From: Halogeometricum borinquense DSM 11551
Lineage (GTDB): Archaea > Halobacteriota > Halobacteria > Halobacteriales > Haloferacaceae
DNA: 32,000 nucleotides
NCBI RefSeq assembly: GCF_000172995.2
Contig: NC_014732.1
Coordinates: 162,835-194,834 of the forward strand
Direction: 5' to 3'
Shown here: one piece after another, positions 7,433 through 19,676 of the stretch
Layout: each line of letters starts with the position of its first letter
How positions within the stretch are numbered: the stretch's first letter is position 1
The notes under the pieces: model-generated
Database searches by the model: none
What the model was told of the DNA's origin: nothing
Seen by the model: the letters and a program-made list of their open reading frames with translations, nothing else
Made by a program: the position numbers and the translations under genes

Positions 7433-7763
7433 CGATGGTACGTGGATAGCCACCCCGCACATTACAGAACTAATTCTGTAATCTTGTGGCGGTTTTGTCG
7501 GAGACCAGTTTCGACTGTCAAGGAGTTCGCCTCGTGTCCACGAGTCGTGGACGAACTGGATAGGTTTCCGTGGTATGGGTCACGAGTGAGTGTTCTCACG
7601 CTGTGCTGGTCTCCTGAGACATAGTTCATCCACGCAACGTGGACAACCCTCGGCGTCAGTACTGGTGGTTCGAGAATGCGCTATATGACCTGATACGACT
7701 GAATACCCACCCTTCACGGTTGTTATGCGGTAGATTTTTTATCTCGGTTTGATACTGTTTGGT

Positions 7764-8735
7764 ATGACAACTAGTGTCGAAAGGCTAGTCAGTCGAGAGG
7801 AGATATTCGAGGGTATCGACGTTTGGAATCGTCAGCATCCCGACTTTCGAATCTCCGACGCACTTATCGAGCAGAATCTCTTTGCACCGCTTCCGGATAT
7901 CGAAGTCCGTTGCTATGGTGGATATGATGAACACGAACTCGTTTCGTTCGCGGTCCTCAAACAACTCGACAGTCCAGTACGGGAATTTGAGGACACTGAC
8001 ACGGCGTGGCTTTCGTTGTTCGCATTCGAACCAGACTCCGAACGAGCGCGAACACTCAGCAAAGATCTACTGACGACCGTCGTGGATAAACACGTCGCCG
8101 CTGACCACTCAACGCTACATTTCGGCTGTAGCCCCCAGAACTTTGTGTCTGGAGTTCCGTCAACGTTCCCGGAACCGTATCGAAATGTGCTTCGTGATGT
8201 TGGGTTCGAATCCCAACAAACAGTGTACGATCTGAGTCGAGCGATTACGAGGTTCGACGACCCGGCTACCGTAGAGTCGGTCGGACGCGAATTGGAGACG
8301 CTCCGTGTAGAACGGGCTACTGGATCCGAGGCAGATCTGCTGTCGTTCCTCGAAGATCAATTTCCGGGGCGCTGGTACTACGAAGCGCGCAATATCTGTC
8401 GTATCCCCGGTGGAGCGGCCGACTACTGGCTGCTCCGCTGGGACGGTGATGTTGTTGGCTTCGCTCGTAGTAATCGCTGGGATGGATCGTATCGGGGACC
8501 GAACGTCAACTGGGGATGGCGTTTGTCCAACGTGTACTGTGGTGTTGGCCCGCTCGGGATCCACGAAGAGCAGCAAGGTCGCGGATGGGGGTTGTTCATG
8601 ATCACGAAAATCGTACAGCGGCTGAAACAGGACGGATACGACACGATGGTTATCGACTGGACCGATATTCCGGGATATTACGAAAAGCTCGGGTTCGAAA
8701 GATGGATCTCTTACGAACGAATGGCAAGAGAATAG
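7764..8735 (+). CDS. GNAT-family acetyltransferase-like protein with an uncharacterised N-terminal region
   Basis: The C-terminal motif-A-like segment is IHEEQQGRGWGLFMITKIVQRLKQDGYDTMVIDWTDIPGYYEKLGFERW. I prefer the ATG at 7764 over the TTG at 7749. Confidence 0.75.
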   Translation: MTTSVERLVSREEIFEGIDVWNRQHPDFRISDALIEQNLFAPLPDIEVRCYGGYDEHELVSFAVLKQLDSPVREFEDTDTAWLSLFAFEPDSERARTLSKDLLTTVVDKHVAADHSTLHFGCSPQNFVSGVPSTFPEPYRNVLRDVGFESQQTVYDLSRAITRFDDPATVESVGRELETLRVERATGSEADLLSFLEDQFPGRWYYEARNICRIPGGAADYWLLRWDGDVVGFARSNRWDGSYRGPNVNWGWRLSNVYCGVGPLGIHEEQQGRGWGLFMITKIVQRLKQDGYDTMVIDWTDIPGYYEKLGFERWISYERMARE

Positions 8736-9087
8736 AATGCGCGAAATCAGTCTGTGTCTCTCAGTAACAGTAATACCGAATAAATATAATTAGACTTTTA
8801 GATTTGGTGCGAGTTTGTGAATTTCGGGATCAGATAGGCAAGTGGATACATCCCAAATATTGGAAACATATACAAATAGATTAGCCACACACAGCCACAA
8901 TTCTTAATTATTAAGTATGTATATTGTTCGAATACTATCTGCTGGTGAGAGATAGCTCGAAAACCCGAGTACTGTCTGCAAAGTAGTAGTATTGAGCAGA
9001 TATACGACCAGATAACGATGGTACTGGGTGAAATAGCCCTTTCTCAGAGGGTTGTCGGTCGTTTCGGATTCCAATTATAGGTTGAAC

Positions 9088-9590
9088 AGGCGCAATACCA
9101 CGCCGTTCACGGTGTGGATACGCGCCGTCACTTGTGGTGACGGCCACCGTTGAAATGCTTTTCCGAGTTCCCTACCGTGATGTTTAACTGACAGGCGAGC
9201 GTAGTAGCCGATAGGAATCGGTCGGAACGGAGCGGATTCCGAACCGTCCTTCGGAGGCGGCCTGTCCGCCCATGTAACGAGGCAGTATCCGAAAGGGCAG
9301 TCGGTGAACGCACATTCCAGAAGAGTGTGTCGACGTGCCGACTGCTGAAAGCGAGCACCACGATACCCCCGACTCCACTGACACCTGCTGGCGTCCCTGT
9401 GGCAAAAACAACACTGGGACGCCGTACATGGTCAAGGATAGGGGTAACGGCCACTTGGCATGGCCAGCAGTCCACCAGTCCAACACCGTGGGACTACCCG
9501 TACCCGAAAGGGCTGGTAGTCCGCCGATTGGACTGCGAACCTGAAACTCCCACCGCTCGGGATTCCTCCGCGTTCACGCGGAGGAGGATG
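9088..9590 (+). ncRNA. candidate large structured non-coding RNA (family not recognised)
   Basis: This is a GC-rich island between AT-rich flanks with no credible ORF. Helices read directly from the sequence: 9089-9093/9122-9126 enclosing 9098-9105/9110-9117 (UUCA loop). 9127-9131/9137-9141. 9208-9212/9217-9221. 9222-9227/9237-9242. 9244-9249/9254-9260 with a C(UUCG)G loop. 9298-9304/9338-9344. 9390-9397/9416-9423. 9449-9453/9461-9465. 9468-9474/9529-9535 enclosing 9491-9498/9515-9522 with an inner GAAA loop. 9565-9572/9577-9584 (UUCA loop). The GNRA/UNCG-type loops are canonical only on the plus strand. The ends are approximate. Confidence 0.45.
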
Positions 9591-10077
9591 TCAAACTCTC
9601 ACTCTACTCTACGGCAGTAATCTGGAGATGCTTTCCGGGAGCTACGTAAGAACACAATTCTCTATAAGTCCTAGTTGTACTGCATGATTATCCAGCATTC
9701 GTTTCCAGAGCGGTAGCTTCCAATTGGTATAGAGGTGTATTCTAACACCTGTAATAGGAGATACAGATGATGCGGAGAGTTCTAACACGTAATAGAGGCA
9801 CGCATCGAATCAGAACCAACTCATGGCCTGATAGCACACAGAGGTCGGCAGTAATTCGAATATGAACCGTGTTCTGTGTGATGTCAGACAACAGTGGTTA
9901 TCTCAAGAGGAACATATAATACAGTACTCCCAATTTAGAAACCGCTCAAACAAACGAGTAACCGGCTGTCTGTCCGAATCGGACAATTCTGTACAGACAT
10001 CTTGCTTGATAAAGAACTCGACAGCTACTCAGTACAAACCGCATCCTTTTTGTTTTAGGTACCCCTAAAATCTGGTA

Positions 10078-10245
10078 ATGGCCGCTGGAACTCAGTCATA
10101 CTCCGAGGAAATCTCGGACCCAGAACACCCCTCGACCCCCGAGATATCTGTCTGTGAGAGCTGCCCCGGCAAATCAGTTTTCATCGAAGACGGGAATACC
10201 GACGGCTGGATCTCCAGCGACATGACTGTTGACGTAACTCGGTGA
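10078..10245 (+). CDS. small acidic protein (55 aa) with a CxxC pair
   Basis: This ORF is below the ORF-track length cutoff. My translation is MAAGTQSYSEEISDPEHPSTPEISVCESCPGKSVFIEDGNTDGWISSDMTVDVTR. Its stop lies 9 nt before the amphi-Trp gene ATG. The C-terminal W-I-S-x-D...V-D pattern resembles small haloarchaeal proteins I recall, but I could not verify this. Confidence 0.5.
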   Translation: MAAGTQSYSEEISDPEHPSTPEISVCESCPGKSVFIEDGNTDGWISSDMTVDVTR

Positions 10246-10254
10246 GTAACTACA

Positions 10255-10557
10255 ATGTCCGACTCAAACGAAAGTGCTGACACGGAAAGCGAACGAACGA
10301 CGATTCGGTCCGGACGTGAGTTCGAACAGGAGTACCGCCTTGACGCGAGCGAAGCGGGGAAATTTCTAATCAATCTCGGCGAACAGCTTCGCGATGAAGA
10401 CGAGCTAACGATTTCCACCGAAAAGTGGGAGCTCCCGTTTGCGTTCGGCGAGCCGATCGAGTTGGAAATTGATTTTGACGGAGTTGGGGATCCCGAACTC
10501 GAAGTCGAACTGTCGCTACCGGGACGAACCGATGAAAAAGCGCCTGATATAGAGTAG
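10255..10557 (+). CDS. amphi-Trp domain protein
   Basis: 100-aa acidic ORF. FEQEYRLDASEAGKFLINLGEQLRDEDELTISTEKWELPFAFGEPIELEIDFDG...ELEVELSLPG matches my memory of the amphi-Trp family architecture. Confidence 0.75.
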   Translation: MSDSNESADTESERTTIRSGREFEQEYRLDASEAGKFLINLGEQLRDEDELTISTEKWELPFAFGEPIELEIDFDGVGDPELEVELSLPGRTDEKAPDIE

Positions 10558-16477: not shown

Positions 16478-16733
16478 CACCAACTCTCTCCGCCGTCCCT
16501 CAGTTTTGTTCAGAGAGATTTCGACAGGTCACCATTCCGTTCTCGGATGAGTTCGACTGGAACGAGGTCCAATTACCAGTTGTCGTTTGAGAAAACCACG
16601 TGTTGCTCAGATATCGGGGGTAATCAATCGCACACGGCGATCCCTTAGTAACACATGTGTACGACTACGAAAGGTGGGTTGCTCGGATAAGTGACGCGCT
16701 GTGCGCGCGTAACAAAGATTGGGGGCACAACCC

Positions 16734-17429
16734 ATGTCATCACTGAGACGGAAATTTCAGACAGCACTAGCATTCAGTGTTGCATTACTAATCGTCGTCG
16801 CATTCACGGTTCAACCCGTTGCAGCCAGCCACCGCAACTCAGTCGAGGTTAGCCACAAGGGTGACCGAATCGAGGTCGAGACGAATGACTTCGATATCGA
16901 CCTACGGTCCGATAGGGCTGAAATCGATACGCAAGACGTCGACTACGAGTTCGAAGGTGACCGTGTCGAGATCGACAGCGACGATCTGGACGTCGAAATT
17001 GATGGCTCGAACATCGAAGTCGAGGGGCGGGAGCATAATCTCGATTTCGAACTTCGTGACGACGGTGACGACCTCGATGTCGAAAGCGACGACTTCGACA
17101 TCGAGTTCAGAGACGGCAGATGGGAGGTCGAGAGCCACGACAGTGACCTCGAAATCGAGAGCCACGGTGACAGCGTGGAGATCGAAGGCGACAGCTTCGA
17201 CATCGAGATCTTCAGAGGCCACGTCGAGATCGACAGCAGAGACTTCGAGATCGACATCGAATCGGATGGCGAAATAGAGATCGAGACGGACAACTTCGAC
17301 GTCGAGTACGAGAATCCAACCCTCGACCTAGAGAGTGACGACCCCGACCTCGACCTCGAATTCGACGGCCAGAACGCTGACATCGAAACAGACACCCTCG
17401 ACATCAAGATGGCGTTACGGTCGGAATAA
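16734..17429 (+). CDS. secreted or membrane-anchored hyper-acidic repeat protein
   Basis: MSSLRRKFQTALAFSVALLIVVAFTVQPVAAS is a signal or anchor segment. It is followed by about 23 short units of the form [VIL]-E-[VIF]-[DE]-x(2-5)-[FL]-D. I hand-counted about 77 D/E in the last 200 residues. Confidence 0.75.
   Translation: MSSLRRKFQTALAFSVALLIVVAFTVQPVAASHRNSVEVSHKGDRIEVETNDFDIDLRSDRAEIDTQDVDYEFEGDRVEIDSDDLDVEIDGSNIEVEGREHNLDFELRDDGDDLDVESDDFDIEFRDGRWEVESHDSDLEIESHGDSVEIEGDSFDIEIFRGHVEIDSRDFEIDIESDGEIEIETDNFDVEYENPTLDLESDDPDLDLEFDGQNADIETDTLDIKMALRSE
16850..17400 (+). repeat. degenerate intragenic tandem repeats (variants of gacttcgacatcgag every ~21-30 nt)
   Basis: The motifs gacttcgatatcgac, gacttcgacatcgag, agcttcgacatcgag and aacttcgacgtcgag recur through the coding region. 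All three forward and reverse frames stay open, which is a repeat artefact. Confidence 0.8.
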
Positions 17430-17482: not shown

Positions 17483-18412
17483 TTAACAAGATAGAAAGGA
17501 ACTCAGTTTGAATATCGGCGACTGGCGAGACGCTCGTAGTGGTCTAAGTGTATGGGAACCAGTTTCGGGAGCGACAACGTCAGTGGACAGAATGCGCGTG
17601 AACGCGTTTCCGAGCGCGTAGTAGCGGGAATTGAACGGCCGAACAACTGCGAGTGCAGCCTTGGCAAGCGGTTTCGGAACGTGTGTAGTCTTCACCCGTC
17701 CGTCGAGCGTACGAGACGCAAGCGCCGCAATCTCGTCGTACGTAAACGTCTCCGGGCCGCCCACAGCGAACTCCTCACGGTCGTCAGAGACCGCATCGGC
17801 GCACGCTGCAGCAAGGTCCGCACCGTGAATAGGGTTGATACGCGCGTTCCCGTCACCGACGAGGAATACTCGCGCCCGGCGGGCCATCTCGAAAAACTCG
17901 GTCATATCCGAGAAGTACCCGGTCGGTCGAACGACCGTCTGCGAGATTTCGGCGTCGTATAACTCATCTACGAACTGCTCTCGCGGTTCCACGAGCGATC
18001 CCCAAAGTTCCGGGGCGAACACCGAAACGAACACGAATCGCTCGACGCCTGCATCGAGCGCTAAGTCGAGAAGGGTTCGGTTCGCCCCGTAATCAACCTC
18101 CCAGTGACTCGCCTGCTGGCGAGTCACACCGAGCGACGAAAAGACCACGTCAATTCCATCGCACAAACCGTCGAGCGTGTCCGAATCCGTAGCCGTGCCG
18201 ACGAAGAGGTCGTCGATGTCCGACCGCACCGCCGGTTCGAGAAACCGACCTGGTGTAGAGAGTTTTTCGACCGATTGCGGCCGCGAAAGCGCCCGCACCC
18301 AGCAGCCGCGACGTTTGAAGGCGCAAACCGCGTATCGGCCGAGATAGCCGGTTGCACCGGCGACCAACACCCGCGTCGGATTCTCCTCCAAGGTATTTTC
18401 TATATTTTGCAT
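17483..18412 (-). CDS. NAD(P)H-binding NmrA/atypical-SDR family protein
   Basis: The N-terminal Rossmann motif is RVLVAGATGYLGRY. The length is 309 aa. The protein starts MQNIEN. Confidence 0.85.
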   Translation of the reverse strand: MQNIENTLEENPTRVLVAGATGYLGRYAVCAFKRRGCWVRALSRPQSVEKLSTPGRFLEPAVRSDIDDLFVGTATDSDTLDGLCDGIDVVFSSLGVTRQQASHWEVDYGANRTLLDLALDAGVERFVFVSVFAPELWGSLVEPREQFVDELYDAEISQTVVRPTGYFSDMTEFFEMARRARVFLVGDGNARINPIHGADLAAACADAVSDDREEFAVGGPETFTYDEIAALASRTLDGRVKTTHVPKPLAKAALAVVRPFNSRYYALGNAFTRILSTDVVAPETGSHTLRPLRASRQSPIFKLSSFLSC

Positions 18413-18428
18413 ATAGTGAATATTGTGT
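18396..18428. promoter_or_regulatory. conserved 33-nt block spanning the start codon, copy 1 (candidate operator); AT-rich box 18436-18442 is placed as a shared TATA for both divergent genes
   Basis: ttttctatattttgcatatagtgaatattgtgt matches 19644-19676 at 29 of 33 positions. It contains CTATAT-N5-ATATAG across the ATG. TATTAAC/TTAATAC lies 24-31 nt from both ATGs (18412 and 18467). Confidence 0.5.
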
Positions 18429-19063: not shown

Positions 19064-19660
19064 TCACCCACTTGTGAGATGGCCGCCGACGAGTTTGAGG
19101 TAGAGGAACGGCGCGAACCACTCTAGACCGGGTTCCACAGAGACGAGCATGAGTCCGACGAGGACACCAACCGAGACGAGAAGCATGCCGACAGGCCGAC
19201 GGAATCGGTGCGGGCTCAGAAGTACGAGAGCGGCGCTCACAATGAGAAACCCGTAAATAAGGGCACTTTCGTACCACGTGACAGTCTCGAAGAGGACCGC
19301 CAAGACGAACGGGTGGAGATGAGCCGACACGAAGCCGAAATGATCCCACGGTCCCTGTGACGACCGGTGCCACCACCGCGCGCCTGCGTCGGTTGTATTG
19401 GCGACGATTCCCCCCGCGATGTCGAGTGCGAACACCGCGACGACAGCTTGTTGGACGAGGCTCCAGCCGAGTGACTGAATCCGCACGTACGCCAGCAGTC
19501 CAACGGCGAACGAGAGCGCGTACGCCAGTACCAGACCGTGTTCGCCGCGCGTCGCATCCGGCCCGACGAGACGGTCCCAGAGTCCGAGAACGCCGCTACG
19601 TGGCATTCTTGCTGATTGCCCGTCGTGTTCACCCGGATTTTTGTTTTCTATATTCGCCAT
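19064..19660 (-). CDS. hypothetical integral membrane protein
   Basis: 198 aa with about 5-6 hydrophobic segments (LVLAYALSFAVGLLAYV, AVVAVFALDIAGGIV, LIYGFLIVSAALVLL, MLLVSVGVLVGLMLV). The protein starts MANIEN. Confidence 0.7.
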   Translation of the reverse strand: MANIENKNPGEHDGQSARMPRSGVLGLWDRLVGPDATRGEHGLVLAYALSFAVGLLAYVRIQSLGWSLVQQAVVAVFALDIAGGIVANTTDAGARWWHRSSQGPWDHFGFVSAHLHPFVLAVLFETVTWYESALIYGFLIVSAALVLLSPHRFRRPVGMLLVSVGVLVGLMLVSVEPGLEWFAPFLYLKLVGGHLTSG

Positions 19661-19676
19661 ATAGTGAATATAGTGT
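19644..19676. promoter_or_regulatory. conserved 33-nt block spanning the start codon, copy 2 (candidate operator)
   Basis: ttttctatattcgccatatagtgaatatagtgt matches copy 1 at 29 of 33 positions. A TATAAC-like box lies about 24-31 nt upstream of ATG 19660 on the coding strand. Confidence 0.5.

Follow-up and report, generated by a model that had tools for sequence, protein, structure and literature searches.

What occupies positions 8736-10077 of a 32,000-nucleotide stretch of Halogeometricum borinquense DSM 11551 (NC_014732.1, positions 162,835 to 194,834 of the forward strand; hereafter the window), an interval with no credible gene? An earlier examination of the letters and their open reading frames (ORFs), which we call the sequence-only reading, had proposed a large structured noncoding RNA of a class that it could not name, or the RNA of a decayed mobile element. 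We find that the centre of the interval is a mobile element of 516 bp at 9079-9594, missing from a sister strain. At a probability of roughly three in four, we read it as a non-autonomous, protein-less member of the IS200/IS605 (IS1341/TnpB-associated) insertion sequences, of the kind termed palindrome-associated transposable elements (PATEs), with an RNA that guides TnpB in trans.

A GNAT acetyltransferase gene (7749-8735) borders the interval on the left, and on the right small acidic ORFs begin at 10078. The GC fraction of the interval is 0.59-0.61 across ~9100-9600 versus 0.38-0.45 in the flanks, and the ORF list holds only short overlapping ORFs, those of the element being Arg/Pro-rich and without Pfam match (none for the 97-aa ORF 9327-9620), all of which bears out the gene-free interval with GC-rich centre and AT-rich flanks of the sequence-only reading. 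A blastx comparison of the element with its cognate TnpBs, a check that this reading had recommended to exclude a decayed protein gene, gave a single marginal match of 23 residues, in the C-terminal tail of TnpB, which the ωRNA (the TnpB guide RNA) overlaps, and the island is thus no frameshifted gene.

Boundaries, target site and family of the element

Two sister assemblies were retrieved by means of a neighbouring IclR-type protein, GCA_004150395.1 (L133) and GCA_000337855.1 (L134). In L133 the flanks are identical and the element is missing; 8736-9074 is there part of a 1,004-bp intergenic spacer, and the empty site reads …GGATTCCAATTAT(A)CTCTCACTCTAC…, i.e. …AATTAT followed by the insertion point and ACTCTCAC…. 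Comparison of empty and filled sites defines the insert as 516 bp, 9079-9594, and reveals no target duplication on insertion 3' of TTAT. A single A leaves an ambiguity of one base, 9080-9595 being formally possible, and the family always terminates in GTCAA. L134 contains the element with two mismatches. The insertion is recent and precise, and its precise absence from the sister strain contradicts the resident host RNA gene that the sequence-only reading had implied. The draft contig of L134 (AOHT01000043.1; L134:6399-6798) stops within the element, which fits an assembly broken at a repeat and implies more copies in that genome.

The same element is found at many other places. With nhmmer the window contains one full-length match (E=8.7e-145), and a blastn search of plasmid records with the island returned 147 places in 59 haloarchaeal records, including 11 full-length matches (to window 9075-9594) that are 82-87% identical and lie in unrelated intergenic contexts. 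Scanning species-representative genomes for the right-end pattern yielded at least 120 stretches, all of them, among the matches listed, in Halobacteria. Again among the matches listed, 84 had enough upstream DNA to be classified: 51 elements of the present gene-less type, 18 with tnpB, and 15 that are of other kinds or have diverged further, for a ratio of gene-less to tnpB-bearing copies of about 3:1. Copies aligned from unrelated loci have abrupt ends, with conserved TTATA at the left and …GGAGGAGGATGTCAA closing the right, and neither end is an inverted copy of the other. Of 64 related elements, 61 have TTAT at their left boundary (TTATA in 57, TTATT in 3, TTATC in 1); TTAT and also flanks tnpB-bearing relatives, and the 3' flanks differ in 120 of 121 relatives.

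TTAT-adjacent insertion without duplication, together with varied 3' flanks, are hallmarks of IS200/IS605-type transposition. In the paradigm for this group, IS608 and ISDra2, insertion occurs 3' of a tetranucleotide (TTAC in IS608) without duplication, both ends carry subterminal hairpins, and the right end of IS608 terminates in TCAA; Barabas 2008 and He 2013 are reportedly the sources for this paradigm. The present element likewise inserts 3' of a tetranucleotide, TTAT, without duplication, ends in TCAA and has hairpins at both ends, and the AATA directly 5' of its left-end hairpin could be a candidate DNA 'guide' for TTAT. It differs in lacking tnpA and tnpB and in having an archaeal host. 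At 516 bp it is too short for a transposase and without coding capacity; it lacks terminal inverted repeats, made no duplication of its target, sits next to a short specific oligonucleotide, has subterminal palindromes related to those of tnpB-bearing IS605-type transposons, and occurs as many dispersed copies with presence/absence polymorphism, all as in PATEs.

Kinship to tnpB-bearing elements is confined to the two ends. When a profile of the gene-less copies was compared by nhmmer with tnpB-bearing elements of ~1.54 kb, positions 2-125 matched (the left end, with the UUCA hairpin, up to the start of tnpB), as did positions 333-522 (ωRNA and right end), which matched tnpB-element 3' ends at E=1e-23 to 1e-30; between positions 125 and 333 there was no counterpart. 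The left ends of the two kinds are 88-90% identical and the right end is common too, both left-end subtypes of the gene-less copies have counterparts with tnpB, and the left- and right-end hairpins have a CG-UUCA-CG apex in common. Where tnpB elements have a 1.3-kb ORF, about 200 nt of unrelated sequence stand. The gene-less copies keep a length of 517-526 bp even between subfamilies that are only 52-67% identical. Since length, structure and both ends are kept across such subfamilies, the element is not decayed: the sequence-only reading came close with the RNA of a mobile element and erred as to the decay, and the class that it left without a name can be called a non-autonomous IS200/IS605-type element, a PATE, with a diverged TnpB ωRNA as its 3' half.

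Some copies carry an insert of 54-56 bp (L001:3186-3241; L073, on the minus strand; L008:3185-3238), always at the site equivalent to window 9256/9257, in the 5' domain of the RNA described below. This insert has 7-bp inverted termini (TCGTTCG…CGAACGA) and two internal hairpins, and the version in L008 is the reverse complement of that in L001 and L073, because of which it resembles a tiny nested mobile element, similar to small mobile repeats that reportedly invade the PATEs of Haloquadratum. A split match at this site was seen in 7 of 29 plasmid records.

A predicted structured plus-strand RNA and its 5' domain

The minimum free energy of 9060-9620, compared with shuffled sequence, has a z-score of -4.9 on the plus strand and -4.6 on the minus strand; these values are similar, and folding energy by itself therefore picks no strand. 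We checked for covariation in 36-40 homologues. RNAalifold, run on a 36-sequence alignment (A3), gave 85 pairs; in 40 of these, both partners change in a compensatory manner. A curated structure, for which the 5' domain and the ωRNA part were folded separately and the left-end hairpin and a pseudoknot were added, was scored alongside controls. In this structure of 119 pairs and 20 helices, 93.2% of alignment cells are paired, as opposed to 34-41% when partners are slid by 1-3 columns; 48 pairs have changes on both sides (controls 17-28), as do 380 cells (controls 32-58), and the covariation score is 0.284 (controls 0.056 or less). None of 500 shuffles matched the observed values. Changes among homologues thus compensate in the proposed fold, the outcome that the sequence-only reading had looked to as a check of its large plus-strand structured RNA.

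Covariation is seen in the left-end hairpin (helices 1-2, with compensatory changes in 7 of 7 inner and 2 of 3 outer pairs), in the 5'-domain helices (3-7) and in the ωRNA stems (helices 8-18). In the 5' domain, pairs 9254/9289 and 9255/9288 switch between GC and AU and between AU and UA; the corresponding A3 columns contain GC in 21 and AU in 15 sequences (columns 188/225) and AU in 21 and UA in 15 (columns 189/224). On the plus strand G:U outnumbers A:C by 250 to 72 in the ωRNA part and by 113 to 61 in the 5' domain, and some pairs are nearly always G:U (e.g., A3 columns 244/279, UG in 31 of 32), which argues for an RNA of the plus strand over either hairpins in DNA or transcription of the minus strand. 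The segment ~9213-9594 is under selection for plus-strand secondary structure.

Several helices drawn by the sequence-only reading recur in this fold. The nested pair 9089-9093/9122-9126 around 9098-9105/9110-9117 covaries, with the outer helix read as 9089-9092/9123-9126, as does the hairpin 9256-9260/9266-9270. The helix placed at 9468-9474/9529-9535 also covaries, in the register 9467-9473/9530-9536, and the one placed at 9491-9498/9515-9522 corresponds to the covarying 9489-9492/9520-9523. Pairing in the UUCA-loop hairpin 9563-9586 is present too, in columns that are invariant. Of the proposed loops, the second GAAA (9506-9509) is real in this subfamily and replaced by a 7-nt loop in another; the first, in a 'CCGAAAGG' hairpin near 9290, is contradicted by covariation, its UCCG pairing instead with CGGA at 9252-9255 with compensatory changes; and the C(UUCG)G 'tetraloop' at ~9249-9254, likewise contradicted by covariation, is a junction between two helices. 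The strand had been called correctly from such loops, and what supports that call is the excess of G:U over A:C and the ωRNA homology.

Four further pairings were considered and not taken up. Two long-range helices suggested by RNAalifold were rejected: 9189-9193/9589-9593 lies upstream of the inferred start site, and 9245-9249/9585-9589 is broken in copies L032 and L053, in which the competing local helix AGGA/UCCU becomes AGGU/ACCU (A3 rows). The other two would join P3 to the ωRNA stem (GACUGC 9340-9345 to GCAGUC 9467-9472) and the 5'-terminal AGGAAUC to GAUUCCU 9561-9567; being invariant or unconserved in divergent copies, they were not adopted. P3 (9297-9302/9340-9345) and the main ωRNA stem (9467-9472/9531-9536) have near-identical sequences, GCAGUC…GACUGC, and could exchange partners; this is not kept in the most divergent copies, L032 and L053.

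The RNA probably does not span the whole element. A TATA-like motif, TTTAAC (TTnAA in the family), is followed downstream by W-W at 9202-9203, and the spacing of the two fits the TTWT/WW promoter of haloarchaea, with its TATA and -10 elements (PMC4983044). At ~9210-9213 the first helix starts, column conservation jumps, and the blastn matches of diverged subfamilies begin. The likely RNA is therefore ~9213-9594 (~382-385 nt) plus transcribed flank, with 9079-9212 as DNA-level left end and promoter, and is shorter than the ~0.5 kb that the sequence-only reading had expected.

Within this RNA the 5' domain has no nhmmer counterpart in tnpB elements. It is the best-conserved non-terminal part of the element (column identity 0.80-0.93). 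In 0.94 Mb of haloarchaeal loci, it occurs 81 times, 75 times with the right end downstream and 6 times in a truncated copy, and it was never found free-standing or with tnpB. Rfam searches with this domain alone, from two subfamilies, gave only chance-level matches that are mutually inconsistent.

The 3' two-thirds is homologous to the 3' end of tnpB elements and stops exactly at the right boundary, 9594, after which the flank is variable. An Rfam search, recommended by the sequence-only reading for 8900-9700 and run on the whole window at gathering thresholds, returned nothing; in E-value mode sot0042 (RF02656) matches 9406-9585 on the plus strand over the full model (43.2 bits, E=1.7e-9), and HgcC (RF00062) matches 9516-9607 with 26.2 bits versus a gathering score of 50. 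The 3' end of a tnpB in Haloarcula marismortui (L007:2883-3054), a bona fide tnpB-linked ωRNA, itself scores 84.9 bits with sot0042, just below the gathering score of 88, and routine Rfam annotation therefore overlooks much of the family in haloarchaea. The right-end hairpin and the candidate pseudoknot 9455-9459/9590-9594 are paired in 98.9-99.4% of cells, the loop UUGGC being complementary to the terminal GUCAA in 99.4%, and their columns are invariant. An HgcC-like match of 27.8 bits was also seen in Halomicrobium sp. LC1Hm (L003:3571-3664, minus strand), ~50 nt downstream of the element and on the opposite strand, and could represent the right end of another IS200/IS605-type element in tail-to-tail orientation.

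Table. Coordinates of the element, its predicted RNA and the adjoining DNA in the window.
Feature	Coordinates	Strand	Basis
Native AT-rich intergenic DNA, upstream of the insertion	8736-9074		GC 0.38-0.41; identical in L133
TTAT target / transposon-adjacent motif (TAM), directly 5' of the element	9075-9078	+	L133 empty site; family left boundaries
Mobile element, 516-bp gene-less IS200/IS605-type (PATE)	9079-9594	+	Empty site in L133; sharp ends; nhmmer
Left-end subterminal hairpin CCACGCCG-UUCA-CGGUGUGG (9098-9117), outer helix 9089-9092/9123-9126	9089-9126	+	Covariation; common to tnpB elements
TATA-like motif TTTAAC (family TTnAA)	9183-9188	+	T109, T110, A112, A113 (near-)invariant in A3
PATE-specific 5' RNA domain	9213-9360	+	No nhmmer counterpart in tnpB elements; covariation; no Rfam match
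5' domain, P1	9213-9250	+	
5' domain, P2, around hairpin 9256-9270 and a conserved internal loop of 17 nt	9252-9255/9288-9291	+	
5' domain, P3, enclosing 9312-9315/9327-9330	9299-9305/9337-9343	+	
5' domain, GCUGAAAGC	9344-9352	+	
ωRNA-homologous scaffold	9361-9594	+	sot0042; nhmmer to tnpB 3' ends; covariation
Scaffold, long stem (inner hairpin 9389-9424)	9367-9444	+	
Scaffold, hairpin with loop UUGGC (loop 9455-9459)	9449-9465	+	
Scaffold, stem	9467-9536	+	
Scaffold, helix	9540-9544/9557-9561	+	
Scaffold, right-end hairpin, UUCA loop	9563-9586	+	
Scaffold, terminal GUCAA, transposon-encoded motif (TEM) / right cleavage site	9590-9594	+	
Predicted guide segment ACTCTCACTCTACTCTACGG, flank transcribed beyond the right end	9595-9614	+	Analogy with ωRNAs (PMC10055086)
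Native AT-rich intergenic DNA, downstream of the insertion	9615-10077		GC 0.43-0.46; collinear with L133

Proposed mechanism and competing explanations

In the reading that we favour, a Y1 transposase, TnpA, encoded elsewhere would excise and insert the element as single-stranded DNA, reading both subterminal hairpins. The promoter kept from a tnpB element would drive the ~385-nt RNA plus guide, and the scaffold in the 3' two-thirds of this RNA would load onto a TnpB that a related element supplies within that cell. Flanking DNA transcribed from 9595 onwards would then direct TnpB to the vacated donor site, TTAT + ACTCTCAC…, which is the empty allele of L133; that allele consists of TTAT and then exactly the predicted guide sequence ACTCTCACTCTACTCTACGG. 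After a cut by TnpB, homologous recombination with another genome copy would restore the element. The 5' domain, standing in place of the tnpB ORF, would belong to the same RNA, and our best guess is that it helps the guide RNA to fold, to remain stable or to be processed.

Several points weigh against this proposal. The 32-kb window contains no tnpB, tnpA, iscB or cas gene, in keeping with the sequence-only reading's finding of no adjacent tnpB, iscB or cas gene. The sot0042 score of 43.2 bits lies far under the gathering score. The start near 9213 and the promoter are both inferred. Covariation of the left-end hairpin, presumed to be the structure that TnpA recognizes in single-stranded DNA, could stem from DNA rather than RNA structure; its sequence and UUCA loop are common to the left ends of tnpB-bearing elements. 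The right-end hairpin and pseudoknot, being invariant, are beyond the reach of covariation, and part of that invariance is imposed by the search pattern. Finally, the 5' domain is without precedent in described ωRNAs, and the RNA may act otherwise than, or beyond, guiding TnpB.

This last point invites a bolder claim, which we put forward only tentatively and regard as doubtful: that the family constitutes a distinct and widespread haloarchaeal RNA class, a 'long ωRNA' of ~385 nt that is no deletion derivative of a tnpB insertion sequence, with a 5' domain that has its own function. If so, this domain could possibly be a platform that binds proteins, a module for processing or a ribozyme, or a switch by which gene-less elements out-compete tnpB elements for TnpB, and it might act independently of TnpB.

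The competing explanation that survives best, although it is improbable, accepts that the element is mobile and makes its RNA mainly TnpB-independent, a riboregulator or protein-binding RNA benefiting host or element, with the 5' domain as core and the ωRNA-like 3' part retained mostly for transposition (as the right end) and for RNA stability. The conservation and covariation of the 5' domain, and its absence from every tnpB-bearing relative, speak for this account, and overexpression of PATE-derived RNA and of sotRNA improved growth of Halobacterium salinarum (PMC4615843). However, the scaffold helices 5' of the right-end hairpin (8-18) covary too, which transposition alone does not need; the copies lie in unrelated contexts with unrelated 3' flanks, and the account has no known candidate target or partner.

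We think it very unlikely that the pairing is conserved merely as hairpins of single-stranded DNA used in transposition, with no RNA. IS200/IS605 elements do move as single-stranded DNA and require subterminal hairpins, the left-end hairpin covaries while lying upstream of the inferred promoter, and the z-scores are alike on both strands. Known TnpA substrates, however, require two subterminal hairpins only, whereas ~17 internal helices covary here; G:U pairs, which are A:C mismatches on the opposite strand, greatly exceed A:C, several pairs being mostly G:U; and the 3' part is homologous to sot0042, an experimentally detected RNA family.

A little less probable still is a resident host gene for a new large noncoding RNA, or a self-splicing or processed intron-like element analogous to IStrons. 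The RNA is large and structured with a GNRA loop, and a structured 5' part followed by a 3' ωRNA recalls IStrons (bioRxiv 10.1101/2023.11.20.567912). Against this, the element is missing from a sister strain with identical flanks and is multicopy and dispersed, no Rfam match to group I or II introns (including Intron_gpI) or ribozymes was obtained at E up to 10, the terminal base is A (…GUCAA) and not the terminal G of group I, a promoter-like motif lies within the element, and the ends cannot make a flank-independent bulge-helix-bulge motif. Readings as a group I or II intron, a bulge-helix-bulge intron, RNase P or signal recognition particle RNA are unsupported. Least probable of all is that a tnpB insertion sequence is decaying here and has left a pseudogene fragment with no function of its own: the 3' ~190 nt do derive from a tnpB 3' end and right end, and the marginal blastx match is to TnpB, but the central ~200 nt have no tnpB similarity, the length is fixed across diverged subfamilies, changes are compensatory rather than random, indel lengths are not multiples of three, and the insertion is recent and precise.

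Relation to known systems, and neighbouring features

PATEs were described in 2011 in haloarchaea as the HqIRS families of Haloquadratum walsbyi by Dyall-Smith et al. (PMC3119063). The present element is like these in being too short for a transposase, without terminal inverted repeats and without target duplication, in having palindromes of IS605 type close to its ends, insertions specific to a strain and, at its 5' end, a targeting sequence of 4-5 bp, and in being invaded at times by small repeats bearing terminal inverted repeats. It differs in that the family, at 516-526 bp, spans many genera and is no simple core deletion of a parent, a core of ~200 nt unrelated to tnpB being kept as RNA structure; the Haloquadratum matches in our scan have only the 3' ~240 nt in common with the element. 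A 489-bp PATE of Halorubrum lacusprofundi and virus HRTV-DL1 has a 3' portion of ~300 nt that is very highly transcribed (PMC10544981). It resembles ours in being haloarchaeal, ~0.5 kb long and with RNA limited to its 3' part (here modelled as the 3' three-quarters). The element had no match in a phage collection and none in Hrr. lacusprofundi among the plasmid matches listed, so that the 489-bp PATE is probably another family.

Sense-overlapping transcripts (sot RNAs) were described at the 3' end of IS1341-type tnpB genes by Gomes-Filho 2015 (PMC4615843) and have since been recognized as the guide RNAs of TnpB, the ωRNAs (PMC12558985, PMC10055086), which feature a pseudoknot between a loop and the TEM and a right-end hairpin (PMC12558985). 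The RNA modelled here shares with these its place at the right end of an IS200/IS605-type element, its stop at the transposon boundary, the right-end hairpin with UUCA loop, a hairpin loop complementary to the terminal TEM, and both sequence and profile homology. Unlike them, it comes from an element with no overlapping or adjacent tnpB, which would rely on TnpB supplied in trans; it also scores under the sot0042 threshold, has an extra structured 5' domain of ~150 nt, and has a stem, 9383-9432, that is larger than in the tnpB-linked form. It was in 2021-2023 that the ωRNA/TnpB framework arose, and Karvelis 2021 is said to be the source for the TnpB ωRNA.

Like HgcC, the RNA has a GC-rich, right-end-like UUCA hairpin and then GAGGAGGxxGUCA, a motif already tied to IS1341 right ends (PMC4615843); unlike HgcC, which was defined in methanogens and Thermococcales, it matches that model over the last ~90 nt only, below the gathering score. 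The 2015 study described both the link to HgcC and an expressed RNA that derives from a PATE and has this UUCA 'RE-like tetraloop' (PMC4615843), and PATEs 'often encode ωRNAs' used in trans by TnpB, recombination restoring the element (Meers 2023, PMC10055086).

Elsewhere in the window, an acidic ORF of 55 aa that contains CxxC occupies 10078-10245 (plus strand), directly 5' of a 100-aa Amphi-Trp-like gene (10255-10557); the ORF has no Pfam match and is not annotated as a gene in L133. About 14 degenerate repeats with 21/27-nt phasing, 62-79% identical, lie at 16858-17411 within ORF 16719-17429 and encode an Asp/Glu-rich repetitive protein. An AT-rich motif of 33 nt (TTTTCTATAT…CATATAGTGAATAT.GTGT) occurs 88% identical in two intergenic regions 1.2 kb apart, 18396-18428 and 19644-19676; both copies adjoin minus-strand ORF starts (17483-18412; 19064-19660), and the motif may be a common operator or promoter.

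The element is a well-delimited addition to the known haloarchaeal PATEs with ωRNA, and the locus illustrates cleanly, as found in nature, how a gene-less IS200/IS605 element is bounded to the single base, its filled and empty sites being present in near-identical strains. The covarying, PATE-specific 5' domain and the fixed ~520-bp architecture across many genera seem to be undescribed in the literature that we searched, and this domain offers RNA biologists a concrete target. The family could also seed an Rfam model, as the sot0042 threshold misses both the gene-less elements and a bona fide tnpB-linked relative. A guide targeting exactly the empty allele is a prediction of the 'homing/retention' model of TnpB, here in a polyploid archaeon. 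That gene-less copies outnumber tnpB-bearing ones and keep a large RNA structure suggests that RNA-only parasitism of TnpB is a stable strategy.

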